NCBI GenBank assembly: GCA_964393095.1
Contig: CAYMSL010000001.1
Location: 1 to 53,190, forward strand
Length of the DNA: 53,190 bases
Direction of reading: 5' to 3'
DNA from: an uncultured Oscillospiraceae bacterium
Lineage (GTDB): Bacteria > Bacillota > Clostridia > Christensenellales > CAG-138
Under the pieces are notes generated by a model. The model saw only the letters and a program-made list of their open reading frames with translations, searched no databases and had not been told where the DNA came from. Below, one piece after another: positions 39,738-53,190 of the stretch. How positions within the stretch are numbered: position 1 is the stretch's first letter; every line of letters begins with the position of its first letter. A program made the position numbers and the translations under genes.

Positions 39738-40159
39738 TTATCTGCTCACTATGTCCACGATCTTTAGCGCAAAATCGCTTGCTTCCTTTAAATCCTTAGA
39801 ATTTGGATGATTGAACGATACAAATAATATCGCTCCTTTACAAACAAACTCGTCGATTACTTTTATCCCCTTTTCTTCGAGTAAACTACACACTGCGGTC
39901 TGTCGTTGCTTACCTAAAGCACAGTTGGTTACAAGCGCAGCATGCTTGAGCGCGGGGGTATCCATTCCCTTAATATACGCCAATAATTCCGGCATGCTGA
40001 CGCCGCCATAGATACCGCCAACTATGAAAAGTAATTCGCTATCCTGTAAGATCGGATTTTCTGTTATCTCTTTGGCTTTGACATTCAAAGCCGAACCGAT
40101 CGCTTCAGCCAATTTTTTGAGTGTTTGGTTTTAGTTGCATAAATAACTGCGGTCTTCAA
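39738..40159 (-). pseudogene. flavodoxin-like gene with a -1 frameshift in an A6 run
   Basis: The downstream frame gives (L)AEAIGSALNV...LFIVGGIYGG... (flavodoxin-like). The expected N-terminus KTAVIYATKTKHSK is in another frame starting at TTG 40159. The frames meet at CTCAAAAAATTGG (~40103-40112). Confidence 0.6.
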
Positions 40160-40236
40160 TATTTTGTTGCCTCATGCGGTTTCCGGTGCGTATTTTTGTG
40201 TGCCATGCGCGGAGAAAGTCACTTAGGTATGGCCAT

Positions 40237-40854
40237 TCATTGCTTTAAAGACTTTCGCACGACAAAATATCTTAAGTCGTATTTGCCTTTATACTTATCA
40301 TTCACCTCTTGAAAAACCACAAAACCGTTTCTTTTATATAGGTCCAGCGGCCCGCTAAAAGCGCTGAACTCATCTGCAAAATGCTGTTCCGGGTATGCTT
40401 CGATCATATGAAATCCTTCGTTTTGCGCATCCTGGCAAGCACGTTCTAATAACTTTGAGGCAATCCCTTTTCGTCTGAATTTTGGTGAAATCGTGAAACA
40501 ATAAATGGATTTAACCTTATCATCCGATTCTGTTGGGTTCACAGCAGTTTTAAATCGCAACCACCCGTCACAATTCAAGCAACTAGACTTTGTATTTGTG
40601 TTGCACCAACCTACAACCTTTTCATTTGCATACGCCAAATATCCTTGAATCATGTCATTATTGATATATTGGATTGCCGCTTCTCGTCTTTTTCCCGGAG
40701 AAGAAAAATCCACATCGCTATGATGGTCGGCGCTGCACCAGCCAACACAATAGCATCTATCCTCATTCGGATTATCCGCATGGGCATCCGTTTCAAAAAA
40801 ACGTAAATAATCTTCTAACAGGTCGGGTGTCAATTTGCGAATTTCAATATTCAT
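40237..40854 (-). CDS. GNAT-family N-acetyltransferase
   Basis: 205 aa, AT-rich. The acetyl-CoA binding region is ISPKFRRKGIASKLLERA (Q/RxxGxG/A-type motif). RBS GGAGG. Confidence 0.75.
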   Translation of the reverse strand: MNIEIRKLTPDLLEDYLRFFETDAHADNPNEDRCYCVGWCSADHHSDVDFSSPGKRREAAIQYINNDMIQGYLAYANEKVVGWCNTNTKSSCLNCDGWLRFKTAVNPTESDDKVKSIYCFTISPKFRRKGIASKLLERACQDAQNEGFHMIEAYPEQHFADEFSAFSGPLDLYKRNGFVVFQEVNDKYKGKYDLRYFVVRKSLKQ

Positions 40855-40888
40855 TTACAGCCTCCGTAAATATCAATACTCCGCTTTT

Positions 40889-42598
40889 TTATCTCATCCG
40901 CCGCACAAGCGCGCGCACTTCTTCTTCGGTGCCGCAGCGAAGCGCCTGCGCCGCAAGCGTTTTGAGTTCCCCGCTGCTGTGCGCGGCCAGCGCCGCCTTC
41001 ACCTCGGCGATGGCCGAGCCGCTCATGCTGAGTTTTTTTAGTCCCATGCCCGCAAGCAGCAGCACCGCGTCCGGATCACCGCCCATCTCTCCGCAGATCG
41101 AGAGCGGCTTACCCGCCGCATCAAACGCGTCGATCACATGCCGGAGCGTGCGCAGCATAGCCGGAGAAAAGCTCTGATAATAGCGGGCGGCCGCGGCGTT
41201 CATACGGTCCGCCGCGCAGAGATACTGGCAGAGGTCGTTCGTACCGATGGATGCAAAATCCACCGCCTCCGCGGCAAGGTCCGCGATCACGGCGATGGCC
41301 GGAATTTCGATCATGATGCCGATCGGCACCTCGCCCATCGCCACGCCTTCCGCCGCCAGCTCCTCGCGCGCCGACAGCGCGGCGGCCTTGGCCCGCGCGA
41401 TGTCGTCGAGACTCCCCACCATGGGGAACATAATCTGCAGCCTGCCGAACACGGAGGCGCGGTACGCCGCGCGCAGCTGGCTGCGGAAGATGTCCTCCTC
41501 GTCGAGGCAGAGCCGGAGCGCGCGCCTGCCGAGGAAGGGGTTTTCCTCCTCCGGAAGCGCGAGATAGGGCAGTTTTTTATCGCCGCCGATATCCAGCGTG
41601 CGAAGCGTTACGGGCTTGCCCTCCGCAAGCAGCAGGACACGGCGGTAGGCTTCAAACTGTTCCTGCTCGGACGGCAGATGATCGCTCTCCATATAGAGAA
41701 ATTCCGTGCGGAACAGCCCGACAAAATCCGCGTGGCGATAGTGCTCGTCCGGCGCGTCGGACCCGATGTTGAGCCCGATCTCCAGCCGCACGCCATCGCT
41801 TGTACGGGCCTCCAGGTTCAGATAGCGCGCCGCCAGCGTACGCTGGGCGCGAAACTCCTCCGCACGGGCGCGGTACGACGCGAGCGTTGCTTCGTTTGGC
41901 GAACGCAGTACGCGACCCTCCACAGCGTCGAGGATCAACGCTTCGCCGTCTTGCACAAGTTCGAGCGCGTCGGCAACGCCAAGCACTGCGGGGATGTTCA
42001 TGCTCTTTGCGATGATGGCGGAATGCGAGGCCGCGGCGCCGACCTCGGTGATGATGCCGAGCACGTTTTCACGATCCATCGTCGCCGTGTCGCTCGGCAG
42101 CAGATCGTGGGCGACGATGATCACCGGCCCGGGCAGGCGGCTCAGATTTTTCTCCTCCCCGCCGCTAAGCAGCCGCAGCAGGCGGTTGCGCACGTCCCAC
42201 AGATCCGCCGTACGGCTTGCGATGGTAGCGTCCTGCACGCCCGAAAGCAGCGCGATAAACGCCTCGAAGGCCTCGCTCACGGCATATTCCGCGTTGCGGT
42301 GCTCCACGTCGACGCCCTCGTAAATCGCCTCGAGCACCTCTTCGTCGTTGAGCAGTTCCTCGTGCGCCGCAAAAATCATCGCCTGCCCGGCAGCCGATTC
42401 GGGAAAGGACGCGCGTGTGCGCTTAAGCTCCGCGATCGCGGCCTGCCGCGCTAGCTCAAAGCGCGCGCGCTCCGCCGCAGCACCTCCGGCCGCGCAATCG
42501 CCCTGCCGCACCACATAGACGGCCGGCCGGTATCGATAGGCCGCGCCGATGGCGATGCCGCGCGAGACCGGTGTGCCGCGATATAGCGTCTCCTTCAC
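40889..42598 (-). CDS. ptsI: phosphoenolpyruvate-protein phosphotransferase (PTS Enzyme I)
   Basis: Motifs GTPVSRGIAIG, active-site region GGAASHSAIIAKSMNIPAV, TIM-barrel motifs LRTLDIGGDK and GTNDLCQY. The start is chosen as GTG 42598 (RBS GGGGAGG, 17 nt after the ptsH stop). A TTG at 42637 is an alternative. Confidence 0.9.
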   Translation of the reverse strand: MKETLYRGTPVSRGIAIGAAYRYRPAVYVVRQGDCAAGGAAAERARFELARQAAIAELKRTRASFPESAAGQAMIFAAHEELLNDEEVLEAIYEGVDVEHRNAEYAVSEAFEAFIALLSGVQDATIASRTADLWDVRNRLLRLLSGGEEKNLSRLPGPVIIVAHDLLPSDTATMDRENVLGIITEVGAAASHSAIIAKSMNIPAVLGVADALELVQDGEALILDAVEGRVLRSPNEATLASYRARAEEFRAQRTLAARYLNLEARTSDGVRLEIGLNIGSDAPDEHYRHADFVGLFRTEFLYMESDHLPSEQEQFEAYRRVLLLAEGKPVTLRTLDIGGDKKLPYLALPEEENPFLGRRALRLCLDEEDIFRSQLRAAYRASVFGRLQIMFPMVGSLDDIARAKAAALSAREELAAEGVAMGEVPIGIMIEIPAIAVIADLAAEAVDFASIGTNDLCQYLCAADRMNAAAARYYQSFSPAMLRTLRHVIDAFDAAGKPLSICGEMGGDPDAVLLLAGMGLKKLSMSGSAIAEVKAALAAHSSGELKTLAAQALRCGTEEEVRALVRRMR

Positions 42599-42614
42599 GA
42601 TATCCTCCCCGCGC

Positions 42615-42890
42615 TCATTCGCCAAAGCCGGTTCCAATCAGCGCCGCAAGTGCGTCGGCGGCCTGCTGTTCGTCGACGCCGTCCGCGGCGATCTCCGCCT
42701 CGCTGCCCTGGGAAAGGCCGGCTGACAATACGCGAAGCAAAGACTTGGCGTTGACCGGCGCGCTCCCCTCGACGCTGAGGTTTTGCACGGTAATGGCGGC
42801 GGCATACTTCTTGGCCTGCGTTACAAACTCCGTCGCGGGTCTTGCGTGCAAGCCGGTTGCGTTGATGATTACGGCGCGTCTTGTCACCAT
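42615..42890 (-). CDS. ptsH: phosphocarrier protein HPr
   Basis: 91 aa. It has the His15 motif GLHARPA and a Ser46-like NAKSLL region. Confidence 0.85.
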   Translation of the reverse strand: MVTRRAVIINATGLHARPATEFVTQAKKYAAAITVQNLSVEGSAPVNAKSLLRVLSAGLSQGSEAEIAADGVDEQQAADALAALIGTGFGE

Positions 42891-42913
42891 GAGTATGCCT
42901 CCCGGATCATTTT

Positions 42914-43699
42914 CTATATCAGGCCGCAGTGGAGAAAGGCATGATACACGCCGTCGTCCTCGCAGGCCGCCGTTACATAATCCGCCGCGGCAAGAACCGC
43001 GGGCGTTCCGTTTGCCATGGCAACGGAAAAACCGGCGTTTTGCAGCATTGAAACATCGTTGTCGCTGTCCCCTACGGCCATGGTTTCCTCGGCGGCGATA
43101 GCAAAATGCCGCAGCATGGCCATAATACCCGCCTGCTTTCCGCCGCTTTCCGCAGCGATGTCATAGATGCCGGGCACCCAGCCTACCGTTGTGCTGTGCA
43201 ACAGCCGCGGGCGCAGGAGCTCCGCCTCGCGCTTTGCGTCGAGGTAAAGCGTGATTCCATATACGTCGCGCGCCGGCTCCATCTCCCGAATCTCGGGAAG
43301 GGGCAAACCAAGGTCTTTGTTGTGCCGCCGCACGGTTTCGTCGATGCGGCTGATGAAGATTGCGTCCTCATAGCAATAGGAATAGGGAATGCGGTGCGTT
43401 TCGCCAAGCGCCTTGACCGCGCGCACATCCTCGGGATTCAGCGGCGCCTTTAAAACGACCGTTCCGTCTACAGTATAGCAGTATTGGCCGGTCAGGGCCA
43501 CGTAACCGTCGAAGCAATCCGGCAGTTCCTCGAGCACATAGCTTTCCTCACGCACCCGCAGGTGGCGGCCCGTCGCAAGGAAGAGGCGCACACCGCGCGC
43601 CTTTGCCCCCAGCAATGCTTTCCGCGTACGCGGGGCGGCGCGATGCGTTTTGATGCTCACGAGCGTGCCGTCGACGTCGAGAAAGACCGCGCGGATCAT
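42914..43699 (-). CDS. Cof-type HAD-IIB sugar phosphatase
   Basis: Trimmed to MIRAVFLDVDGTL (DxDGT). GDSDNDVSML and AMANG motifs are present. Confidence 0.85.
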   Translation of the reverse strand: MIRAVFLDVDGTLVSIKTHRAAPRTRKALLGAKARGVRLFLATGRHLRVREESYVLEELPDCFDGYVALTGQYCYTVDGTVVLKAPLNPEDVRAVKALGETHRIPYSYCYEDAIFISRIDETVRRHNKDLGLPLPEIREMEPARDVYGITLYLDAKREAELLRPRLLHSTTVGWVPGIYDIAAESGGKQAGIMAMLRHFAIAAEETMAVGDSDNDVSMLQNAGFSVAMANGTPAVLAAADYVTAACEDDGVYHAFLHCGLI

Positions 43700-43799
43700 C
43701 GTTTTATCGGCGCCGGACGCCCGGCACATCCCCTTGTGCGCACGCCGCGCCGTGTTCCCGTCAAAAGCTTCACCCTATTCCCTGTTCCATCCGGCGGCG

Positions 43800-44555
43800 T
43801 CACGGCCGGCCATAGTCGCCGCGCTCGATTTGCGCAAAGAGCGCTTTGTTCCATTCGTCCCCGCCGTCGACGTTCGAACTCAGAAACACCGGCGGCTCCA
43901 ACCCATCCGCGCGGAAAAGCCCGGCAATCTCCATGCCAAGCTTCTGCGCAACATAGCACCCGGCAATCGACGACGTTGCGCCCATCATCGCCTTGCAGCC
44001 TTCGATATGGCAGGAGACGTCCCCATCGTCGCCGCAATTGTCGATGACCACATCCGCGCAGTCGCCGAGCTTTTTCCCCGACGGGTGCCGGGAAGCCTGC
44101 AGCGCGCCGCCCGCAAGCGACGTCAGCGCGACGATGAAAACGCCGCGCGCCCTCGCGCGTATCGCGAGTTCAACCATCATCGCGTTGCGGCCGGAGTTGG
44201 AGGCGAGCAGCAGCGTATCGCCTTTTGTAAGCGGATACATGGCAAGCAGCACCCCGGCGTAGGAGGCCTCGCGCTCAAGCAATGTGCTCTTATGCGGATG
44301 CTCGTGCAGCATCAGTTCCGGCGGCAGCATCGGAGAAACGCAGCCAAGCCCGCCGGCGCGCGTATACATCTCCTCGGCGATCATATGCGAATGACCGCTT
44401 CCGAGCAGGTAGAAACGCCGCCCGGCGCGAATCGAGCGGTAGGCCGCCTTTGCCGCGCTTTGGATCGCCGCGGCCTGCGTTGTTTCGATAAGCCCGAGTT
44501 TCTCCTGCACAATCCGCAAAAACGACTCCGGCCCAAAGCCTTGTTCACCAGCCAT
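43800..44555 (-). CDS. SIS-domain protein (UPF0309-like sugar-phosphate isomerase/binding protein)
   Basis: Trimmed to MAGEQGFGPESFL.... RRFYLLGSGHSHMIAEE and LLLASNSGRNAMMVE are typical of the UPF0309/SIS family. Confidence 0.7.
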   Translation of the reverse strand: MAGEQGFGPESFLRIVQEKLGLIETTQAAAIQSAAKAAYRSIRAGRRFYLLGSGHSHMIAEEMYTRAGGLGCVSPMLPPELMLHEHPHKSTLLEREASYAGVLLAMYPLTKGDTLLLASNSGRNAMMVELAIRARARGVFIVALTSLAGGALQASRHPSGKKLGDCADVVIDNCGDDGDVSCHIEGCKAMMGATSSIAGCYVAQKLGMEIAGLFRADGLEPPVFLSSNVDGGDEWNKALFAQIERGDYGRP

Positions 44556-45912
44556 AACGTTCCGGCCCCCATTCGGAATAGGATAGCGTTTGTTCGAGCT
44601 TGACCGCCGTGTTGTGCGGCACGTCCTGCGTGATGATCGCGCCGGGCGCGATGACGCTGTACGCGCCGATCTTGACGCCCGGCTGCAAAATGACCCCGGC
44701 TCCTGTGCGGCAGTAGTCGCCGATGTAGGAGCAGTTGTCAAACAGGGTGGCAACGCGCTCGCGCCGCCCCTTGACGCGCTGGATTGTCCGGTCGTCATCA
44801 AAGCGCAGCGTGCCGCAAAGCGTTCCGACGCCGATGTCGGTATACGAGCCGATAAGGCCGTATAGTTCCGCGGTGTGGTAGAGATATACCTTGTCGAGAA
44901 TCATTCCGCCGAGAAACTCCGCGCCATGGTCGATGATGCAGTCGCTGCCGATCGTGCTGTACCCGTATACCTGGGCGTAGTTGCGAATGCTCGTTCGCGC
45001 GCCGATTAGCGCTTCGCCGAGTATCATCGCGCCGTTGTCGATCGCGCTGCCGTCGCCGAGTATCACGTTGCCCTGAATCAGAACATTTCTGCCGATGCGC
45101 GCGTTTTCGCCGAGCGATACAAAGCCCTCGATCTGTGCCGACGCATCGATGCCGGAGCCCCTGCCAAGCCGGTTCTCTGTCAACGCGCGGCAAGCCTCGT
45201 GCCTAAAGTAGGCGTCCGCCTCCATGAGCTGCCAGGGCTTGTCGATATCGAAGCAATAGCCCTTGCCTTCGATCGCCGCGATGGGCTGCTCCGCCAGCGC
45301 GTCGAACAGCGCCGCTTCGAGATACCGTTCGCAGGGCGCGCCCTCCCCCACCTTCATGCCCGGAAAGTACTCGGGCGTCGCGGGAAGCCGCGCGCTCAAC
45401 GCGCGGTTGAGCCGGAAGGCCGCCATGCGCTCTTGCAGGCCGTCTCCGCGCTGATGCGCGCCAATGGCCGCGATTCGCCCTTGCTCGGTACGGCAGCAGA
45501 TCCATGCCGATGGATCCCCGATCTCAGAATAGACGAGCGCCGCCGGTGTTTTCGCCGCGAGCAGCGCGTTAAGATCCGCCGGGTCGAGCAGCGTATCGCC
45601 GTAGAGCACGAGATACTCCTCCGGCTCGTATCTCTTTACGAGCGCCAGCAGCGTATCCGCCGTCCCCATGGTCTCCTCCACGCAGCATACCTCGGCGGCG
45701 GAAATCTCCATGCAGCACTTTGTCACCGCGCCGCGAAACGACGGCTTGATTGCCACATAGATGGGCGCGTCCGTACAGGCGCGCACCGCCTCCATGCTCC
45801 TTAGCAGCAGCGGTTTGTTGGCCACCGGACGAAGGCACTTCGGCCCGACCTTATCAAACGGAAACAGCTTTGTCCCGCTGCCCGCCGCGAGAATAAACAC
45901 CGGCATACTCAT
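44545..45912 (-). CDS. GlmU-like sugar-1-phosphate nucleotidyltransferase with C-terminal left-handed beta-helix
   Basis: N-terminal NTP-transferase motif FILAAGSGTKLFPF. The C-terminal half is rich in hexapeptide repeats (IGRNVLIQGNVILGDGSAIDNGAMILGEALIGARTSI...). RBS GAGGAAG. Confidence 0.7.
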   Translation of the reverse strand: MSMPVFILAAGSGTKLFPFDKVGPKCLRPVANKPLLLRSMEAVRACTDAPIYVAIKPSFRGAVTKCCMEISAAEVCCVEETMGTADTLLALVKRYEPEEYLVLYGDTLLDPADLNALLAAKTPAALVYSEIGDPSAWICCRTEQGRIAAIGAHQRGDGLQERMAAFRLNRALSARLPATPEYFPGMKVGEGAPCERYLEAALFDALAEQPIAAIEGKGYCFDIDKPWQLMEADAYFRHEACRALTENRLGRGSGIDASAQIEGFVSLGENARIGRNVLIQGNVILGDGSAIDNGAMILGEALIGARTSIRNYAQVYGYSTIGSDCIIDHGAEFLGGMILDKVYLYHTAELYGLIGSYTDIGVGTLCGTLRFDDDRTIQRVKGRRERVATLFDNCSYIGDYCRTGAGVILQPGVKIGAYSVIAPGAIITQDVPHNTAVKLEQTLSYSEWGPERYGW

Positions 45913-45973
45913 AACGGCACTTCCTCGTTTGCACACTTGTCTACGTACTTCCCGCGATTTTTCGCGCCTTGCT

Positions 45974-46300
45974 TCAGGGCGCTACGCAAAGCTCCCTGCG
46001 CAGCAAAACGATCTCCGCGATCAGTTCCCTGGCAAGCGCCGCGCACATCAAATGATCCTGCGCGTGGGAAAGCAGGATATCGCCGCCGTCGAGCTCGCCC
46101 GAGGCGTAGCGCCGCAATAGCTCCGAATGCGCCTTGTGCGCTTCGAGCGCATAGTCGTCCGCATCCTGCATGAGCGTGTCCGCCCTCGCAAAATCCTGCT
46201 TCTTTGCTTCGCCGAGCGCTTCAAAGGCCGCGCCGCGCGCCGCGCCCGCGCTTGCGATGATGCACATTGCGATCTCTTCCATGCCTTCATCCAACGCCAT
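45974..46300 (-). CDS. PTS lactose/cellobiose-family EIIA component
   Basis: 108 aa helical protein. IIASAGAARGAAFEAL...AHKAHSELL...LLSHAQDHLM is typical of EIIA-Lac/Cel. RBS AAGGAGG. Confidence 0.85.
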   Translation of the reverse strand: MALDEGMEEIAMCIIASAGAARGAAFEALGEAKKQDFARADTLMQDADDYALEAHKAHSELLRRYASGELDGGDILLSHAQDHLMCAALARELIAEIVLLRRELCVAP

Positions 46301-46336
46301 GGCATATCCTCCTTGGTTTTACGCCGCTTCAGCGGC

Positions 46337-46389
46337 GGTATCGGGCCGCATGCCCGGCTTTTAATACAGGCTCACGGTTCCTGTTCCAT
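46337..46389. repeat. copy A of a 62-nt-period tandem duplication
   Basis: GGTATCGGGCCGCATGCCCGGCTTTTAATACAGGCTCACGGTTCCTGTTCCAT closely matches 46399-46452. Confidence 0.85.
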
Positions 46390-46398
46390 TTCAGCTGG

Positions 46399-46452
46399 GG
46401 TATCAAGCCGCATGCGCCGGTTTTTAATACAGGTTTACGGTTCCTGTTCCAT
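46399..46452. repeat. copy B of the tandem duplication (includes last 6 codons of the small ORF)
   Basis: GGTATCAAGCCGCATGCGCCGGTTTTTAATACAGGTTTACGGTTCCTGTTCCAT. It overlaps the stop region of CDS 46435-46665. Confidence 0.85.
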
Positions 46453-46665
46453 GGTGACGGAAAAGTAGAGGGTGTTGCCCCAGTCGTAGCTTCTCACGAT
46501 ACGCTTAGCAAGGCTGACGGCGTTGTAGCCGCCAACGCCCGTGATATCGAACTCCAGGCGCATCCCCTCCTGACGGCGAAAGCGGATGAATATCCCGTCC
46601 TTGTCGTAGCCGTCCAAAACCTCCCGTACCTTATGCGTCAAAAGCGGTGCCCTGACCACCAGCAT
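46435..46665 (-). CDS. small hypothetical protein (76 aa)
   Basis: The ATG at 46665 is preceded by AAGGAG. It sits between the DUF871-like and EIIA genes. I recognise no family. Confidence 0.55.
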   Translation of the reverse strand: MLVVRAPLLTHKVREVLDGYDKDGIFIRFRRQEGMRLEFDITGVGGYNAVSLAKRIVRSYDWGNTLYFSVTMEQEP

Positions 46666-46669
46666 GCTC

Positions 46670-47797
46670 TCACTCCTTACAATCCGTTTCAATCATATAC
46701 GATCGCAAAGCGTCGCGCAAATACGCGAGCAGCGGCTCGTCGTCTTCGCATACCCGCCCGACGACGTTGGCAAACGGCTGCGCCGGCAGGTCGGATAGCA
46801 AAATTTGCAGTTCGCCGGCGTACTGCGCGCTCAGGGTATTGTCCATCGTCACCTCGCCGCGCTTTCCCGGCCGCGTTTGACACGGTTCGAGAAGAATGCC
46901 GCGCGCCGCCGTGCCGCGCAACAGATCAACCGGCTCGTCTTCGCGGTTGCAAAACACGATTTGCCCAAGCGCCCGGATCACGTCTTTGGGCACCCAGTCG
47001 AAGAAGCGCACCCGCAGCCTTGTCGGCGCGCCCGAAAGCGCAACGACGAGCTCCGCGAGTTCCTCCTCCGACGCGAAGCCGTCCCCGAAGAGAACGTCGT
47101 CCACCCCGAGAAAGGTCAGGATGCGCGCCGCCGTATAAGGCGCGGCATACCTTAGCTTCTCCACCGTCGGCACGCCGCGGCTCGGCGCATGCAGCATCGA
47201 CGGCGCGGCGCGCGAGGCGACAAACGCGCTCACCCGAACGCCCCGCGCGCGCAGCCAGCCGCATGCGGCAGCCACCGCCTGCTCCGAAATACCCGTGCCG
47301 CAGCGCGGGTAAAAGTTAAAGCAGGCCTCGACCCGCTTTGGGTCGCCCTCGCGTTCGATGCGCTCGAACAGCTTCTGCGCCAGGGATACCGTTTGGGGGC
47401 GATCCGGACGCAAAGACGCACAGTTAAGCTGCAGCCCGAGCCCGCTTTCGTGTCTCGAAACCGCCGCGAGCGCTTCGATCGAGAGACCGCTGTCGATGCG
47501 CACGCCGCACACCCCCATATCCGCAAGGCGGTTTAGCGCCGCGTCGAGGCCCCCGAAGGTTTCGATTGCCGCGTCGTTGAGATCGCACCAGACGGAGAGA
47601 TTCCGCGCCGCGCAGGCGTGAACCGCCCGCGTAAACACCGGCGCATCGGGCCGCTGCGCGCCGGCAAAATGCAGGCTCTCGAGAATCATGGAAAGGAACG
47701 CGCGCTGACAGCCGGCCGCCGCCGAACGTTCGATATACGCCTCGAGCGCCGCTTCCTCCGCCAGATCCGGATAGAGACTGATTCCCGCCTGATGCAT
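46670..47797 (-). CDS. DUF871 / MupG-like 6-phospho-glycosidase family protein
   Basis: 375 aa. N-terminus GISLYPD..., FYPRCGTGIS, and C-terminal VTMDNTLSAQYAGELQIL resemble DUF871 proteins. The S. aureus member MupG is a 6-phospho-N-acetylmuramidase. Confidence 0.7.
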   Translation of the reverse strand: MHQAGISLYPDLAEEAALEAYIERSAAAGCQRAFLSMILESLHFAGAQRPDAPVFTRAVHACAARNLSVWCDLNDAAIETFGGLDAALNRLADMGVCGVRIDSGLSIEALAAVSRHESGLGLQLNCASLRPDRPQTVSLAQKLFERIEREGDPKRVEACFNFYPRCGTGISEQAVAAACGWLRARGVRVSAFVASRAAPSMLHAPSRGVPTVEKLRYAAPYTAARILTFLGVDDVLFGDGFASEEELAELVVALSGAPTRLRVRFFDWVPKDVIRALGQIVFCNREDEPVDLLRGTAARGILLEPCQTRPGKRGEVTMDNTLSAQYAGELQILLSDLPAQPFANVVGRVCEDDEPLLAYLRDALRSYMIETDCKE

Positions 47798-47808
47798 ACA
47801 AAACCCCG

Positions 47809-49119
47809 CTATTTCAGGTACGCAAGATGTTCGCCGTGGGCCGTGATCATCTCATCGAGCATCGCCTTGGCCACGTCGATGTCGTTGACAAAGGGGTTGG
47901 CGAGCAATGCGCTAAGCGCCGCCGCGTAGCTGCCCGTCGCCGCCGCCCTTACGCTCAGGCGTTCGTAGGCCTTCACCTGCTGGATCAGCCCCGTGACCAG
48001 CTCGGGTATCGCGCGGCGAATCGGAACGGGTTTTGCGCCGTCGCGGCCGATCACGGCGTTGACCTCGATCACCGCGTCGTCCGGCAAGACGGCCAAGGCG
48101 CCGCCGTTTTTGACGTTTACGGTGTGAATCTCGCGCTTGTCGTTATAGATGGCGTCGACGAGCGATATCGCGGCTTCGGAATAGTAGGCGCCGCCGCGCA
48201 GCTCAAGCTCCTTCGGCTTGACGTCGAGCGTCAAATCGCGATACTGCGCGAAGAGCTTTTTTTCGATCTCCATCACCTGCCGCGCGCGCGAGCCGTTCTT
48301 CGCAAAATCCGCCTTTTCCTGCGCGAGCATCGTACGGTTTCCGAAATAGTAACGGTGATAGGGATTCGGCAGCATGCCAAGCTCGCGGATGAAGGAAAGA
48401 TCCCACGCGCGGTCGGACAGCTTCCCGAGCGCCTCCGTTAAAAGCGCGTCGTCCTGCAGCAGCGCCGGCAACAGGTCGTCGCCGTCGAGCGTGATCTTCG
48501 ATACGAAGCTCATGTGGTTAAGGCCGATAAACTCGGCGTCCACGCGCGACGCTTCCACGTCGAGGCGCTTGGCAAAGTCGCGCTTGATGCAGATGGGAAT
48601 GTTGCATAGTCCCATCGCGCGCACGCCGCCATACTCGAGCACGGCCTCGGTGACGATACCGGACGGGTTCGTAAAGTTGATGAGCCATGCGTCGTCCGAA
48701 TATGCCTGAATGTCCCGGCAGATGTCGAGTATCACCGGCACGGTGCGCAGCGCCTTGCAATAACCGCCAGGGCCCGTCGTCTCTTGGCCGATGACGTCAT
48801 AGCCGAGCGGAATACTCTCGTCCTTTGCTCGCGCCTCAAGCCCGCCGACGCGAAACTGCGTGAGCACGAAATCCGCGTGTTCAAGCGCTTCGCGGCGATC
48901 GAACGTCACGTGTACGTCGATGTCCACGCCGGCTTTTTTCAGCATGCGGCGCGTCAGTTCCCCAATGATATGAACCTTCTCCCGGCCCATCGGCACGTCG
49001 AAAAGCCACAGCTCGGAAACGGGCAGCGAGTCGCGCCGCCGGATGATCCCCTCGATCAGTTCGGGCGTATAGCTGCTGCCGCCGCCGATCACCGCGATTT
49101 TCAGTTTTCCCTTGACCAT
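47809..49119 (-). CDS. GH4 6-phospho-beta-glucosidase (CelF/ChbF/LicH-like)
   Basis: Trimmed to MVKGKLKIAVIGGGSSYTPELIEG. QFRVGGLEARAKDESIPL, GQETTGPGG, NFTNPSG and GLCNIP are GH4 hallmarks. Confidence 0.9.
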   Translation of the reverse strand: MVKGKLKIAVIGGGSSYTPELIEGIIRRRDSLPVSELWLFDVPMGREKVHIIGELTRRMLKKAGVDIDVHVTFDRREALEHADFVLTQFRVGGLEARAKDESIPLGYDVIGQETTGPGGYCKALRTVPVILDICRDIQAYSDDAWLINFTNPSGIVTEAVLEYGGVRAMGLCNIPICIKRDFAKRLDVEASRVDAEFIGLNHMSFVSKITLDGDDLLPALLQDDALLTEALGKLSDRAWDLSFIRELGMLPNPYHRYYFGNRTMLAQEKADFAKNGSRARQVMEIEKKLFAQYRDLTLDVKPKELELRGGAYYSEAAISLVDAIYNDKREIHTVNVKNGGALAVLPDDAVIEVNAVIGRDGAKPVPIRRAIPELVTGLIQQVKAYERLSVRAAATGSYAAALSALLANPFVNDIDVAKAMLDEMITAHGEHLAYLK

Positions 49120-49121
49120 GT

Positions 49122-49664
49122 TTACCCTTCTTTCTCTGCGCTTGACCCGACAAGTTCCGGCGCAAGCCCGCTGAGCCGATCGTATCCGGTGCGGTCGGTT
49201 CGATCGGCGAAGATGAGAATCACCGCGATCATAAACGGAAACCCGCGAAAAAACAGCACAAGCACCGGTTTGATTGCGGCGCGCAGCAGGAGCTTGAGCG
49301 CCGTGAGCCAGCGCTTTTCGGCCTGCTTCACGGCAACGAGCCGAAGCCCGGCGATTAATTTCCCGACCGTGCGGCCGCCGGTAAGAACGGTGACGGCCGC
49401 TTCCCAACCGCCCCAAATTAAAAGCGACTGCAGATAGGCGGTGTTGAACGTTTCGTTGAAGGAGGCGTACGCCGCGGCGAACGCCTCCTCCGTGCCGCCC
49501 ATGCCGTTGAGCGCTTTGAGCGCTTGGATTGACGCGACAATCCGCGGTGCGCCAAAGACCCGCTCGCATAGCAGCAGGATCCCGGCAAGTATCGCGGCGT
49601 CAATCAAAAAGCTCAAAAGGCGCATTAAACGCCGCTTTGTCAGTAAATGCGTCTCAAGGTGCAT
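49122..49664 (-). CDS. RDD-family membrane protein
   Basis: 180 aa. RRLMRLLSFLIDAAILAGILL and GRTVGKLIAGLRLV are typical of the RDD domain. Its stop lies 2 nt before the GH4 start. Confidence 0.6.
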   Translation of the reverse strand: MHLETHLLTKRRLMRLLSFLIDAAILAGILLLCERVFGAPRIVASIQALKALNGMGGTEEAFAAAYASFNETFNTAYLQSLLIWGGWEAAVTVLTGGRTVGKLIAGLRLVAVKQAEKRWLTALKLLLRAAIKPVLVLFFRGFPFMIAVILIFADRTDRTGYDRLSGLAPELVGSSAEKEG

Positions 49665-49867
49665 CGTCTCTTCCTTCCGATAGCCCCGTGGAATTGGTTC
49701 GGCGTCCGTCGCGCGTAGTCGAACCGCCCGCCGAAGCGATGCGCGCGCCGCCCTTGGCGCGCTTTGGGCGGCGTGTCCGGCAAACGGCGTGATTCTTCCA
49801 TATGCGTTGAGAGCGTGCCGTTAACATACTCTAAAAGATCATAGGATACAAGCCGCTTGCGAGAGGT

Positions 49868-49897
49868 CCCGCCGGCAAACCGCGATTTGCCGGCGGG
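49868..49897 (-). other. perfect 12-bp hairpin in the IIC-RDD spacer
   Basis: CCCGCCGGCAAA, 6-nt loop, TTTGCCGGCGGG. It begins 18 nt after the IIC stop. No U-run follows on either strand. Confidence 0.7.
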
Positions 49898-49914
49898 CCG
49901 TGCGGCAGAATCGG

Positions 49915-51213
49915 TTACGCCGCCGCTTCCGCGGCGAGCTCTTTTTCCGCCTGTTCCTTCTTCACCTCGTTTTTATCCCACGCCCGAATGAACGGGTACC
50001 AGATAAAGAACGCGATCAGGAAGTTGATCACCTGCAGAATCAAGCCTCCGACCTTTCCGCCCGTGGCAAGATAGCCGCAGATAAAGTATGGCGTCGTCCA
50101 GGTGATCGTAAGTCCGGACGGCGCCGGGAATATGCCCGCACGCATGGTCAGGTAGGTAAAGATTGCGATGATGACCGGCGCGCAGATGTAGGGAATCATC
50201 AGGAATGGGTTCAGCACGATAGGCAGGCCGAACACGACCGGTTCGTTGATGTTGAAGAGGCCGGGCGCGAGCGAAAGCCGGCCAATGTCCTTGCCAACCT
50301 TGCTGCGGGCAAAGCAGACGAGCCAGAACACGAGCGGAAGCGTTGCCCCGGAGCCGCCGATCCACAGGAAGTTTTCTACGAAGGACTGCGTCACGATGTG
50401 CGGCAGCGCCGCGCCGACGCGGTAGGCCGCGAGGTTTTCCAGCGTCGCGTTGGCCCAGATCGGCTCCATGACGGAGGAGACGATGTTGGAACCGTGGATG
50501 CCGAACGACCAGAGGATCTGCTCGACGAGCGTCGTAAACGTGACGCCGCCAAGCGACGTGCCGACCTTCGTCAGCGGCGCGCTGACCGCCCAGCCGATAA
50601 ACGTCGCAATGTTGCCAAACGGCGTAATCGAGAAGAGGAGCTTAATTAACAGCGCGAGCACGATGATGATCACGCCCGGAATGAGCGCGATAAACGAGCC
50701 GGAAATCGACGGCGGCACGCTGTCCGGCAGCTTGATGACCCAGTTGCGCCGCACGATGAACTGGTAAACCCAGCCGACGAGCAGCGCGATGATCAGCGCG
50801 ACAAAGAGGTAGCTCGTGCCGAAGTAGTCCGCGTTCCAGGACCAGGTTTCGGCGTCGAACTGACTCACGATCAGATAGGTGGAAACAGACAGGACGCCGG
50901 CCGGCATGCCGTCGACGCCGTAGCTGTCCGCAAGCGATTTTGCCACGCCGAAACCGGAGATGATGCTGATGATCGACATCGTCGCCGGAAACACCGTGTT
51001 CCACACAAGCGTATCGCCCCAGCCCTCGCCGAACAAGCGCATCATCAGGTTTTGATATGCCTGAATCGGGAAATCGCTGATGATAATAAACATAGAACCA
51101 ATGATCATCAACGGCATCGCAAGAATGATGCCGTCGCGCAGCGCGAGCAGAACGCGGAAATTCGCGATTCTGGTCGCAATCGGTATGAATTTTTCTTCAA
51201 ACCACCTTTTCAC
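49915..51213 (-). CDS. PTS lactose/cellobiose-family EIIC permease
   Basis: 432-aa polytopic protein. FIPIATRIANFRVLLALRDGIILAMPLMIIGSMF is a typical CelB/ChbC N-terminus. GTG start with RBS GAGGGAGGG. Confidence 0.9.
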   Translation of the reverse strand: MKRWFEEKFIPIATRIANFRVLLALRDGIILAMPLMIIGSMFIIISDFPIQAYQNLMMRLFGEGWGDTLVWNTVFPATMSIISIISGFGVAKSLADSYGVDGMPAGVLSVSTYLIVSQFDAETWSWNADYFGTSYLFVALIIALLVGWVYQFIVRRNWVIKLPDSVPPSISGSFIALIPGVIIIVLALLIKLLFSITPFGNIATFIGWAVSAPLTKVGTSLGGVTFTTLVEQILWSFGIHGSNIVSSVMEPIWANATLENLAAYRVGAALPHIVTQSFVENFLWIGGSGATLPLVFWLVCFARSKVGKDIGRLSLAPGLFNINEPVVFGLPIVLNPFLMIPYICAPVIIAIFTYLTMRAGIFPAPSGLTITWTTPYFICGYLATGGKVGGLILQVINFLIAFFIWYPFIRAWDKNEVKKEQAEKELAAEAAA

Positions 51214-51243
51214 GTCTATCCCTCCCTCATCGATCCAACACGT

Positions 51244-51558
51244 TCAGTTCTTCTGCTCAAGCAGTGCCAACGCTTCTTCGAGTATCTTTTTACCGTTCAT
51301 CATGCCGTAATCGCGCATTTCGATTACGCTCACGAGCGTCCCGAGCGGTTCGTACTTTGCCTTGAGCTTGCCAAGCAGATACCGCACCTGCGGGCCGAGC
51401 ATGAGCACATCGGGCGTTTCCGGAAGCCCCTTCTGCACGATCGGCTCGCCGAACGCCTTGATCTCCGCCTCGACGCCGCGTTCCTTCGCCGCTTTCTGCA
51501 TGCGATCGACAAGCAGGCTCGTGGACATCCCCGCTGCGCAGCACAGCACAATTTTCAT
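51244..51558 (-). CDS. PTS lactose/cellobiose-family EIIB component
   Basis: Trimmed to MKIVLCCAAGMSTSLLV, which carries the active-site Cys motif. 104 aa. RBS AAAGGAGG. Confidence 0.9.
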   Translation of the reverse strand: MKIVLCCAAGMSTSLLVDRMQKAAKERGVEAEIKAFGEPIVQKGLPETPDVLMLGPQVRYLLGKLKAKYEPLGTLVSVIEMRDYGMMNGKKILEEALALLEQKN

Positions 51559-51628
51559 AGGCGATTTCCTCCTTTCCCGAGAATTGCCGCCCACACGGCG
51601 GAGAATCCGAAAGCGTATTTCTTCCGGC

Positions 51629-52165
51629 TTAACCCTCGTAGCGCCGCCTGCTCTCTTCGGCAAGCCGCGCGTCAAGTTCGGCGCAAACCTGTTGTTCCAT
51701 CTCGCGCAGGCGCTTGCAATAGTCGCCCACCCTGCCGCTTAGCGCGATACTGATGCCGACGATCAAGAGCGATATCTGCGGCAGCAGCAGCGCCGTCATC
51801 AGAATTTTGTACCATCCCGCGCTTGCGGCGCCAAACAGCGGGCGAATCAAAACAAGCAGCGAATACCCGCTGCCAAGAATCATCATGAGCGCCGCCGAAC
51901 GCGAACCGTTGACAACGAGAAAGTAAGCAAACGTCGCCACGACGAGAAGAACCGAAAAGGAAGCCAGCCTAAGCAGAATCGATGTGCCGGGAACAAACAG
52001 ATTTGCAAGCCGGTCGAGCGCCACGATGCAGCCCCAGTAGACCATGGCGCGCGTTAAATTCCGATTTGTCGCGGCAAACGCAGGATTTTCGGCACACTCT
52101 TTTGTCCGCGCCGCCGCGAGGAGCCGGTTTCGTTCCTGCTGCTGTTGCCTTGTGTTCTCGGTCAT
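51629..52165 (-). CDS. hypothetical membrane protein
   Basis: 178 aa with four predicted TM helices. RBS AGGAG. I recognise no family. Confidence 0.5.
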   Translation of the reverse strand: MTENTRQQQQERNRLLAAARTKECAENPAFAATNRNLTRAMVYWGCIVALDRLANLFVPGTSILLRLASFSVLLVVATFAYFLVVNGSRSAALMMILGSGYSLLVLIRPLFGAASAGWYKILMTALLLPQISLLIVGISIALSGRVGDYCKRLREMEQQVCAELDARLAEESRRRYEG

Positions 52166-52320
52166 TTTTCCTGACTCCTATGGGATGCCGAACGGGTGAT
52201 TCTGCTATTCCTTACGCGACGGGCCGCGGCTCTATGGGCACGCGGTAAGAGGCGGCGCGATGTGATAACGCTGCGTTACGCGCCGACGGCCGAAGTTTTT
52301 GATCCTGTTCCGGCCACATT

Positions 52321-52349
52321 TTGACACATATTATTTAATCTGGTATAAT
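52321..52349 (+). promoter_or_regulatory. perfect-consensus sigma-A promoter on the + strand (antisense to the ROK-like gene)
   Basis: TTGACA (52321-52326), 17 nt spacer, TATAAT (52344-52349). Confidence 0.45.
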
Positions 52350-52376
52350 AATATTCGTCAATATGTGAATTGTCAA
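52348..52376 (-). promoter_or_regulatory. near-consensus promoter on the - strand for the membrane-protein/PTS genes
   Basis: Minus strand: TTGACA (52376-52371), 17 nt spacer, TATTAT (52353-52348). Its -10 overlaps the -10 of the + strand promoter. Confidence 0.5.
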
Positions 52377-52453
52377 TACGCACGCGCGAAGATCGCCGCG
52401 CGTCCGGCGTCGAATTCCCTCTTTTTTCGTTAAAAAGCGCCTGGGCGAAATCG

Positions 52454-53190
52454 CTAAACCGCGCGCAGGTAACGGTCGATGAGCTTTTGCAAAATGCCTG
52501 TCTGCGAGGCGTCGCAATTATCTGAGAGGACAAACTTCGTGCTCAGCGGCAGATCCCCTTCGCCCGCGAGGCTCGCAAACTTTACCGCGCCGTCGCAGAG
52601 GCGCCGCGCCGTGGCAAGATCGTTTGCGGCGATCACAAAATAGTCGGGATCGAGCAGCCAGAGCACGTTATAGATCGCCGTAAACAGCGGACGCATACGC
52701 TCGGCAAAACCCTCCTCGCGCTGCCATTCCCCCGAGACGACCTGCTCGACGCGCGCAAGCCGGTTCCCCCAGGTAACAAGCATCTTGCCCGGGTTTTTGG
52801 CAAGGCCGTCCACGCCCTCGTGCATCCGTCCATTTTTGATGAATACGCCGCTGATGCCGTCGCCAACGTAGAGGTAATACAGGCTTTGCTCGGGCTTCAT
52901 GGAAAAGTCGCGGCTCTGCGCCAGCGCGGCAAACGAAATATCCTGTCCGATCAGGATGTTGTGCGTTAAAAAGCGTTCGCGCAGCACGCTCGAGAACCCG
53001 ACGTCGTGATACCAGTCGAACAGCACCGAAGCCGCGCGGTCGCGCGTTTTATCATAGACGCCCGCGGTCGACAAGCCGACACCCAGCACGTTCCGGCCGC
53101 GGCAGCTTGCGTTCACCTCGTCCGCCAGCGCGCAGAACTGCGCGAAATAATCCCCGCCGGCGGAACCGCGCTCGAAGCTTGCGAGCCGGT
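52454..53190 (-). CDS. ROK-family-like protein, 5' end outside the window
   Basis: The reading frame stays open to the window edge. LGVGLSTAGV and YLYVGDGISGVFIKNG resemble ROK repeats. I could not see the usual CxCGxxGC zinc motif. Confidence 0.45.
   Translation of the reverse strand, partial: RLASFERGSAGGDYFAQFCALADEVNASCRGRNVLGVGLSTAGVYDKTRDRAASVLFDWYHDVGFSSVLRERFLTHNILIGQDISFAALAQSRDFSMKPEQSLYYLYVGDGISGVFIKNGRMHEGVDGLAKNPGKMLVTWGNRLARVEQVVSGEWQREEGFAERMRPLFTAIYNVLWLLDPDYFVIAANDLATARRLCDGAVKFASLAGEGDLPLSTKFVLSDNCDASQTGILQKLIDRYLRAV

Follow-up and report, generated by a model that had tools for sequence, protein, structure and literature searches.

We propose that positions 40889 to 52165 of a 53,190-nucleotide stretch of Clostridia DNA (the window) form one operon, and that this operon is a lineage-specific copy of a widespread module for the utilization and salvage of disaccharides of the N-acetylglucosamine/glucosamine (GlcNAc/GlcN) type, an explanation to which we give somewhat better than an even chance. 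The operon combines a phosphotransferase system (PTS) and phospho-glycosidases of the families GH4 and GH170 with two conserved enzymes, i.e., NT-LbH, a nucleotidyltransferase (NT) joined to a left-handed beta-helix (LbH) acyltransferase domain, and a SIS protein of the UPF0309 family. We infer the substrate of the module as well as the reactions of these two enzymes. To the known PTS operons for chitobiose-type and cell-wall disaccharides, the module adds these two conserved enzymes, whose catalytic residues are intact: NT-LbH represents a bacterial branch of the ST0452/GlmU family in which the acceptor site is changed, and the SIS protein the Firmicute branch of UPF0309, of which NagS is the only characterized relative. 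The window belongs to contig C1, which runs 10 kb further, of a 1.87-Mb metagenome-assembled genome (MAG); this MAG is 72% complete, and absences from it are thus weak evidence. Related loci and genomes used for comparison are labeled L and G, respectively.

Conservation of the NT-LbH module

NT-LbH defines a sharply bounded family of about 455 amino acids, with 64 invariant columns in 21 diverse members, and a scan of one representative genome per species returned about 525 relatives. The window proteins were compared with 84 loci of NT-LbH relatives (tblastn), counting partners within 10 kb. Most frequent were the SIS protein (SIS_2; 51 of the 84 loci), a BadF/BcrAD-type sugar kinase (46), the GH170 protein, hereafter MupG (44), the PTS component EIIC (38), and an RDD-family membrane protein (35), followed by EIIB (33), EIIA (24), GH4 (20), a small protein (15), Enzyme I (EI; 15), a PRD regulator (14), and GH84 (13). 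The HAD phosphatase, the 178-amino-acid membrane protein, and the GNAT acetyltransferase of the window were found within 10 kb at none of the 84. Clustering NT-LbH at 70% identity, keeping a single locus for each cluster, and requiring at least 6 kb of sequence on either side left 20 loci, with SIS_2 at 11, MupG and the kinase each at 9, and EIIC at 8.

The module recurs in Oscillospiraceae, Ruminiclostridium, and Treponema and, in a shorter layout without GH4 and EI, in Bacillaceae. At its fullest, it comprises a lactose/cellobiose-family (Lac/Cel) PTS, the RDD protein, a sugar kinase, GH4, GH170, the small protein (76 amino acids in the window), NT-LbH, and the UPF0309 SIS protein. Ruminiclostridium and Oscillospiraceae share a fixed order of 13 genes: PRD regulator, EI, HPr, EIIA, EIIB, EIIC, RDD, BadF-type kinase, GH4, MupG, a 74-amino-acid protein, NT-LbH, and SIS_2. 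Paenibacillus, Spirochaetes, and others have a layout with an ATP-binding cassette (ABC) transporter, in which a GH109-like NAD-dependent glycosidase is found where the PTS layout has GH4; a second glycosidase of this NAD-dependent kind is frequent in the module. The hexosaminidase is GH170 with PTS uptake and GH84 in its place with ABC uptake, and the kinase role is filled by different ASKHA families depending on the lineage (BadF-type, ROK, or hexokinase-type).

This recurrence across phyla and in two transporter formats argues that NT-LbH and the SIS protein are not passengers, and the conserved neighborhoods bear out the initial annotation of the window, which had assigned both to the PTS/GH4/MupG unit. 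Literature searches returned nothing on this gene combination, nor on RDD proteins with PTS, and for GH170 yielded only the work on Lacticaseibacillus paracasei (PMC12791066). The module is found in cultured bacteria, namely Ruminiclostridium papyrosolvens, Clostridium sp. BNL1100, Gottfriedia, Neobacillus, Paenibacillus, Lawsonibacter faecis, and Pseudoflavonifractor capillosus, so that standard tests of growth, induction, and enzyme activity can be used to find its substrate and both reactions.

In the window, the module is rearranged in a lineage-specific manner. On L095, a metagenome contig whose NT-LbH is 70% identical, a divergent hexokinase gene and an intact ROK regulator are followed by a 179-amino-acid membrane protein, EIIB, EIIC, RDD, GH4, MupG, a 74-amino-acid protein, EIIA, and NT-LbH; its membrane protein is a 44%-identical homolog of the 178-amino-acid protein at the same position in the window. 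A 95%-identical contig (L096) reads GH4, MupG, the 76-amino-acid protein, EIIA, NT-LbH, SIS_2, HAD, HPr, and EI. The HAD phosphatase was found outside the window only on this contig, and no HAD-family gene was present in seven other distinct loci annotated with Pfam. The HAD phosphatase and the 178-amino-acid membrane protein are local additions. Of 240 genomes from the family of the window, only 2 encode NT-LbH, and the 39 further species of the genus all lack it; this rarity marks the module as accessory.

One EI and one HPr gene were found in the MAG, both inside this cluster. The initial annotation regarded ptsH-ptsI in a sugar-specific cluster as unusual, but in this lineage the arrangement is the usual one. 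EI is present in 33 of 40 same-genus genomes with 0-4 copies each, L. faecis (G003) has eight EI genes, and in the genomes checked (including G003, G214, and G219) the distance between an EI gene and an EIIC gene is usually 1-6 kb. Lawsonibacter also has a separate MurQ-EIIC-EI cluster. Carrying its own EI and HPr in a cluster is a habit of these Clostridia.

Some neighbors of the related loci were observed besides. In two Spirochaete-type loci (L093:1801-9368 and L094:3852-9368), the genes on either side of NT-LbH encode DegT-type aminotransferases and GFO/IDH/MocA oxidoreductases, and the loci also have GH84, ROK, an ABC transporter, and a PIG-L deacetylase, a hint of amino-sugar remodeling via keto intermediates. 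Adjacent to the module in Ruminiclostridium, Paenibacillus, and Bacillaceae is a secreted unit of about 850 amino acids with no Pfam family and a faint hint of a beta-propeller (L005:13673-18886, L088:746-3331, L008:1-2039, L069:1-1989, L031:14659-18957, and L074:11590-19578). It is single or duplicated, often with an adjoining SLH-domain gene. Neither a PDB sequence search nor Pfam gave a catalytic domain for this unit, and it was not found in the MAG of the window; we regard it as a candidate depolymerase that may generate the substrate of the module.

Uptake, cleavage, and the two conserved enzymes

The PTS is of the Lac family with all three EII domains present (PF02255, PF02302, and PF02378), and its EIIC reached 229 bits with the chitobiose-specific model PRK10297 (cut-off 760). 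The RDD protein adjoins EIIC in 35 of the 38 loci holding EIIC, and may be an unrecognized accessory subunit of the transporter.

The GH4 protein scored 500 bits with the Geobacillus 6-phospho-beta-glucosidase 5c3m and 492 bits with 1s6y, compared to about 186-205 bits with alpha-specific enzymes. These scores favor 6-phospho-beta over 6-phospho-alpha enzymes and point to the LicH/CelF/ChbF type; both GH4 domains and the N-terminal GGGS dinucleotide motif are present. The GH4 enzyme of E. coli cleaves its phospho-disaccharide only once it has been deacetylated (PMC12791066). The GH170 protein showed the MupG_N TIM-barrel and MupG_C domains above the cut-offs, with 1x7f and 2p0o as matches in the PDB. 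The sole member of GH170 reported as biochemically characterized is the 6-phospho-N-acetylmuramidase MupG (PMC6262408). A genetic case is ChbE, which is required by L. paracasei for growth on chitobiose via a Lac-type PTS (PMC12791066). In the window, GH170 is found outside the context of MurP (a Glc-family EIIBC) and MurQ, since the EIIC is of the Lac/Cel type and the 72%-complete MAG has no MurQ above the cut-off. The 76-amino-acid protein, listed in the initial annotation as a small open reading frame, is real, with homologs in at least 15 loci and MupG adjacent in every case. Its AlphaFold model (predicted local distance difference test, pLDDT, of 94.7) has a beta-alpha-beta-beta-alpha-beta fold, for which Foldseek returned only generic ferredoxin-like matches (SPOR, PII-like; E >= 0.04) and no assignable function.

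NT-LbH falls below the family cut-offs of TIGR03992 (150 vs. 292 bits) and TIGR01173 (74 vs. 367 bits). Its nearest relative with a solved structure is the archaeal dual enzyme ST0452 (104 bits; fold similarity TM 0.63-0.73), and a Foldseek search with the NT-LbH model returned ST0452, GlmU, and GMPP only. The nucleotidyltransferase motifs GxGxK, YGD, and DIDKPW are conserved in the family and align to ST0452; G11, K15, K25, G105-D106, and D222...K225-P226-W227 vary little or not at all among the 21 members, K15 being a Lys for the loop Arg.

In the acyltransferase half of GlmU, a His and a Glu form the catalytic pair. A profile-profile alignment (hhalign) with two bacterial GlmUs placed the invariant H346 and E332 of NT-LbH on these residues, which suggests that the pair has probably been kept. 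The same alignment showed Tyr, Leu, and Thr in the columns of E. coli GlmU R333, K351, and K392, which we take to be the basic residues holding the phosphate of GlcN-1-phosphate, and the corresponding Lys positions of ST0452 align to variable residues. In our reading of these alignments, NT-LbH would be a bifunctional enzyme with an acyl acceptor other than a sugar-1-phosphate.

Among PDB entries, the SIS protein matched a Bacillus structure (3cvj) with 204 bits and NagS (9eol) with 118 bits. NagS (SCO4393), described in 2025, is a MurQ-related GlcNAc-6-phosphate dehydratase of Streptomycetaceae, in which H53, R64, E94, and D179 are essential and S91 and N228 important (PMC12680351). The residues H55, R66, E94, D179, and N228 of the SIS protein match this catalytic set and are invariant in 11 module SIS proteins spanning PTS-type and ABC-type modules, with S91 replaced by Thr. 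Orthologs of NagS share at least 58.7% identity, occur only in Streptomycetaceae next to dmdR1, and have dehydratase activity (PMC12680351); the SIS protein, with its score of 118 bits and its different genomic context, falls outside this group. The conserved residues suggest that the chemistry of ring opening and C2 proton abstraction has probably been kept, acting on a substrate different from that of NagS.

A second, different context for UPF0309 was observed at L098:6715-8732 and L099:2784-4766, where the UPF0309/SIS_2 gene directly follows a ceramidase-like (PF04734) amidase gene. At L098, this pair sits in a mannose-family PTS operon with a GntR regulator. The pairing fits action on a de-acylated hexosamine-6-phosphate.

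Operon layout, hairpin, and regulators

The listing of open reading frames and the Pfam and NCBIfam scans recovered every gene that the initial annotation had placed in the region, in the same order and all on the minus strand (Table 1). Intergenic gaps range from -11 to 134 nt, with the 250-nt spacer between EIIC and RDD as the exception; the RDD stop and the GH4 start overlap by 4 nt, and the NT-LbH stop and the SIS start by 11 nt. The promoter-like site faces the first gene of the series, i.e., that of the 178-amino-acid membrane protein. Spacing and conservation together indicate a single predicted operon.

Table 1. Features identified in the operon region and its upstream flank (positions in the window)
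Feature	Position	Strand	Support and remarks
ROK-family regulator, C-terminal sugar-binding part	52454-53190	-	Weak Pfam ROK match; gene runs past the window end
Promoter-like site, sigma-70-like, TTGACA-17-TATTAT	52376-52348	-	11/12 matches; consensus match only
Membrane protein, 178 amino acids, predicted	51629-52165	-	No Pfam or NCBIfam match; lineage-specific first gene
PTS EIIB, lactose/cellobiose family	51244-51558	-	PF02302, 74.6 bits; TIGR00853
PTS EIIC, lactose/cellobiose family	49915-51213	-	PF02378, 201.6 bits; TIGR00359, 454 bits (cut-off 434)
Stem-loop, perfect 12 bp, without U-tract	49868-49897	-	Directly after EIIC
RDD-family membrane protein	49122-49664	-	PF06271
GH4 NAD-dependent 6-phospho-beta-glycosidase, LicH/CelF/ChbF type	47809-49119	-	PF02056 and PF11975
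GH170 (MupG/ChbE family), putative 6-phospho-beta-N-acetylhexosaminidase	46670-47797	-	MupG_N, 143 bits; MupG_C, 63 bits
76-amino-acid soluble protein, ferredoxin-like fold	46435-46665	-	No Pfam match; conserved homologs
PTS EIIA, lactose/cellobiose family	45974-46300	-	PF02255, 90.9 bits
NT-LbH, 455 amino acids, ST0452/GlmU-like nucleotidyltransferase and left-handed beta-helix acyltransferase	44545-45912	-	
UPF0309/SIS_2 sugar-phosphate enzyme, NagS-like	43800-44555	-	PRK02947, 259 bits
Cof-type HAD-IIB sugar-phosphate phosphatase	42914-43729	-	TIGR00099, 150 bits, above cut-off
HPr	42615-42890	-	PF00381, 91 bits
Enzyme I	40889-42637	-	TIGR01417, 545 bits; exact start uncertain, alternative GTG at about 42598

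The strong hairpin pointed out in the initial annotation was found at the start of the EIIC-RDD spacer, in a region with a minimum free energy of -51.6 kcal/mol (z = -3.98). A perfect stem of 12-14 bp directly follows EIIC in four loci, i.e., the window, L095 (6350-6385), L005 (5665-5715), and L090 (5632-5672), with z values from -2.8 to -5.1 and in no case a clear U-tract. The position is kept and the sequence is not, the spacers of the four loci being unrelated. The conserved position suggests an element that sets the ratio of transporter to enzymes, likely an intra-operon 3'-end, processing or stability element, or a partial terminator. An Rfam scan of 40000-53190 gave two chance-level matches only, and the spacer matched no known RNA family.

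Upstream of the operon, the ROK gene (C1:52457-53510) encodes a regulator with an N-terminal MarR-type helix-turn-helix (HTH) domain. A frameshift splits this gene near contig position 53190-53200: the intact 349-amino-acid homolog of L095 aligns to both pieces, with its first 103 residues in frame -2 and residues 107-349 in frame -3. The frameshift could reflect a real pseudogene or an assembly error; if real, the operon would be de-repressed (constitutive) in this organism. Divergent to the regulator and outside the window lies a gene for a hexokinase-family sugar kinase (PF00349/PF03727; C1:53594-54823, plus strand), found in the same place in L095 with 54% identity. It seems to take the place of the BadF-type kinase found in the canonical module; in the lineage of the window, this kinase and the ROK regulator are present instead of the BadF-type kinase and the PRD regulator.

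Two further observations concern the flank and one of the spacers. A 63-nt tandem duplication (two copies, 87% match; 46328-46452) covers the 3' end of the gene for the 76-amino-acid protein and the spacer before EIIA. The GNAT acetyltransferase gene (40237-40854) begins just 34 nt past the EI stop, with no terminator-like site in the interval, and marks the border of a stretch of lower GC content (0.47-0.54 vs. about 0.62 in the operon).

Proposed route, alternatives, and known systems

We hypothesize that the PTS imports a beta-linked disaccharide or short oligomer of the GlcNAc/GlcN type, which would be phosphorylated at O6 of the non-reducing unit. GH170 would cleave substrates with an N-acetylated phospho-sugar and GH4 those with a non-acetylated one, like ChbF in E. 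coli, and a kinase, in the lineage of the window the divergent hexokinase-family gene product, would phosphorylate the released sugar. These three steps of uptake, cleavage, and phosphorylation are based on family knowledge and conservation, while we infer the reactions of the following two. The NagS-like SIS protein would take the C2 proton from a 6-phospho-hexosamine derivative, leading to deamination/isomerization or to C3 elimination. NT-LbH would N-acylate an amino sugar without the anomeric phosphate that GlmU requires, and would nucleotidylate a sugar phosphate, so that a share of the sugar would end up as nucleotide sugar. Such a route to a nucleotide sugar had been suggested in the initial annotation and, with the NT motifs intact, is plausible, but the likeness drawn there to the N-acetylmuramic acid (MurNAc) shunt of the MupP-AmgK-MurU type is not supported.

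All families of the module that have a known relative point to sugars of the GlcNAc/GlcN type: GH170, GH84, PIG-L, the BadF-type (NAGK-like) kinases, NagS, and the relatives of GlmU and ST0452. In each of the two transporter formats, a hexosaminidase that requires or accepts the acetamido group (GH170 or GH84) is combined with a glycosidase of the elimination type that depends on NAD (GH4 or GH109-like), which suggests a non-reducing sugar that is either N-acetylated or not. Candidate substrates are partly deacetylated chitin oligomers and de-N-acetylated fragments of cell-wall glycans, and the module may explain the use of partly deacetylated chitin or cell-wall fragments by gut and soil Firmicutes.

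Some results weigh against this proposal. The module has neither a mutase nor an anomeric kinase, and nothing in it makes a sugar-1-phosphate, so that the nucleotidyltransferase step would depend on a housekeeping mutase. Carriers of the module already encode NagA, NagB, and GlmU, and about one third of the distant NT-LbH loci in the reduced set are without any partner gene. At the level of the enzymes, a phmmer alignment to ST0452 puts D340, not a His, at the position of the acetyltransferase base, and the LbH half of the model is of low confidence (pLDDT 55-75). Homologs of UPF0309 from Clostridium and Paenibacillus were essentially inactive on GlcNAc-6-phosphate (PMC12680351), which excludes one candidate reaction without giving another; these homologs were not among the top matches of the SIS protein search. 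We also considered the module as a substitute for NagA, NagB, or GlmU, and rejected this since carriers own all three. For a replacement of MurQ by the SIS protein, likewise considered, the picture is mixed, with MurQ present in two carriers and no MurQ above the cut-off in two others.

A further-reaching proposal, which we regard as possible and put forward tentatively, is that NT-LbH and the UPF0309 protein represent a new pair of reactions and a new salvage or catabolic branch in at least 500 bacterial species. A candidate for these reactions is N-acylation of a hexosamine that is not phosphorylated at the anomeric position, followed by nucleotide activation, and hence a GlmU-independent, eukaryote-like route from an imported GlcN-type sugar to UDP-N-acetylhexosamine, coupled to a NagS-like C2-enolizing enzyme with a new substrate.

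On the other hand, the module could be purely catabolic for hexosamine glycosides, with the SIS protein as a hexosamine-6-phosphate deaminase/isomerase (an AgaS/NagB-II analog) and with NT-LbH serving breakdown instead of salvage, for example via a nucleotide-sugar intermediate for epimerization or transamination, as in the bifidobacterial lacto-N-biose/galacto-N-biose (LNB/GNB) pathway. The conserved C2-enolization residues are consistent with this, as are the amidase-UPF0309 pairs of the mannose-family PTS operons, which resemble a deacylase with a deaminase, and the variants, among them that of Spirochaetes, in which NT-LbH occurs beside DegT-type, GFO/IDH/MocA, and PIG-L genes together with GH84 and an ABC transporter. 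However, the PTS form of the module lacks an epimerase and a second nucleotidyltransferase, carriers already have NagB, and no assay of UPF0309 with hexosamine-6-phosphates was found in the literature searched; we consider the catabolic explanation unlikely.

Salvage of peptidoglycan sugars, in which MurNAc-6-phosphate-GlcNAc would be imported and cut by MupG, and MurNAc-6-phosphate would pass through the MupP-like HAD phosphatase and a C1 kinase to UDP-MurNAc, has little probability in our view. In its favor, the biochemically characterized GH170 enzyme is reportedly a muramidase (PMC6262408). The NT motifs are intact, the genes for HAD, NT, and the MurQ-related SIS protein are adjacent in the window and its 95% relative, and the MAG and Paenibacillus silvisoli have no MurQ above the cut-off. 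Against this, the HAD phosphatase, which the initial annotation compared to MupP, was found at none of the 80 related genome loci (tblastn, 0 of 84 loci) and in no annotated neighborhood beyond the near relative. No AmgK-type kinase was found at the window or at related loci, in line with the initial annotation, which saw no anomeric kinase; the ROK-like gene that it considered for this role is the HTH regulator described above. The kinases of the module are of the BadF, ROK, and hexokinase families, all of which are known O6 kinases. Besides, MurNAc specificity is at odds with an EIIC of the Lac/Cel type instead of the MurP type and with the presence of MurQ in some carriers (Lawsonibacter, in its own EIIC-EI cluster, and Bacillus sp. 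AL-1R), and the hexosaminidase of the ABC variant is GH84, a beta-GlcNAc-ase.

An ordinary cellobiose/chitobiose PTS operon beside unrelated housekeeping genes (a GlmU paralog, a phosphoheptose-isomerase-like gene, a phosphatase, and ptsHI) would fit the EIIC score above the cellobiose IIC equivalog cut-off, the closeness of GH4 to the LicH/CelF type, and the interruption of the cluster by a 250-nt spacer in which a hairpin and a weak promoter-like site are found, but it is hardly credible given that the NT-LbH/SIS pair recurs with PTS, GH170, and a kinase in many unrelated lineages and two transporter formats, that NT-LbH lies far below the GlmU cut-offs, that carriers have a GlmU of their own besides, and that the post-EIIC hairpin is itself a conserved feature of the module. 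An NDP-heptose logic (GmhA, HddA, GmhB, HddC) was dropped in view of the NagS-type residues of the SIS protein and the lack of conservation of the HAD phosphatase; GmhA structures matched the SIS protein with E = 0.003-0.004 only, and no GHMP or HldE-type kinase lies nearby.

Overall, the proposed GlcNAc/GlcN module shares parts with several known systems. In the MupP-AmgK-MurU shunt of Pseudomonas and Tannerella, a recycled amino sugar is converted into a nucleotide sugar via a nucleotidyltransferase. The idea of this routing is shared, and an HAD phosphatase is present in the window; the window differs in having no AmgK-family kinase, an HAD phosphatase that is not conserved with the module, a nucleotidyltransferase with an extra LbH domain, and no specific indication of MurNAc. 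The chb system of E. coli has the deacetylase ChbG and no GH170, NT-LbH, SIS protein, or kinase, its general PTS proteins being encoded elsewhere. The module shares with this chbBCARFG operon the Lac/Cel PTS and a GH4 enzyme needing a non-acetylated phospho-sugar (PMC12791066).

With ST0452 (Sulfolobus tokodaii) and GlmU (PDB 2ggo, 5z09, 1hv9), NT-LbH shares the two domains, the NT motifs, the C-terminal motifs of the LbH domain, and probably the His/Glu catalytic pair; it differs by the loop Arg being a Lys, by the loss of the basic residues binding the phosphate of GlcN-1-phosphate, and by belonging to an accessory uptake cluster instead of being a housekeeping gene. With NagS (PMC12680351; PDB 9eol), the SIS protein shares the UPF0309/SIS_2 family and the catalytic residues, while NagS adjoins dmdR1 and scores lower (118 bits vs. 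204 for 3cvj). The MurP-MupG-MurQ system of S. aureus, which recycles a peptidoglycan disaccharide (PMC6262408), likewise imports its amino-sugar substrate by a PTS, cleaves it with a GH170 enzyme, and has a SIS-fold enzyme for the 6-phospho amino sugar, but its transporter is the Glc-type MurP, its SIS enzyme is MurQ of the PF01380 type, and it has neither GH4 nor NT-LbH. The chb cluster of L. paracasei (PMC12791066), which encodes ChbR, the PTS ChbABC, the DUF3284 protein ChbD, and the GH170 protein ChbE, is without GH4, NT-LbH, UPF0309 SIS, kinase, RDD, and its own EI and HPr, and its accessory protein is of the DUF3284 family instead of the RDD or 76-amino-acid protein found here. Both systems nevertheless combine a Lac/Cel PTS with GH170 and a small accessory protein by the transporter, with NagA and NagB encoded elsewhere.

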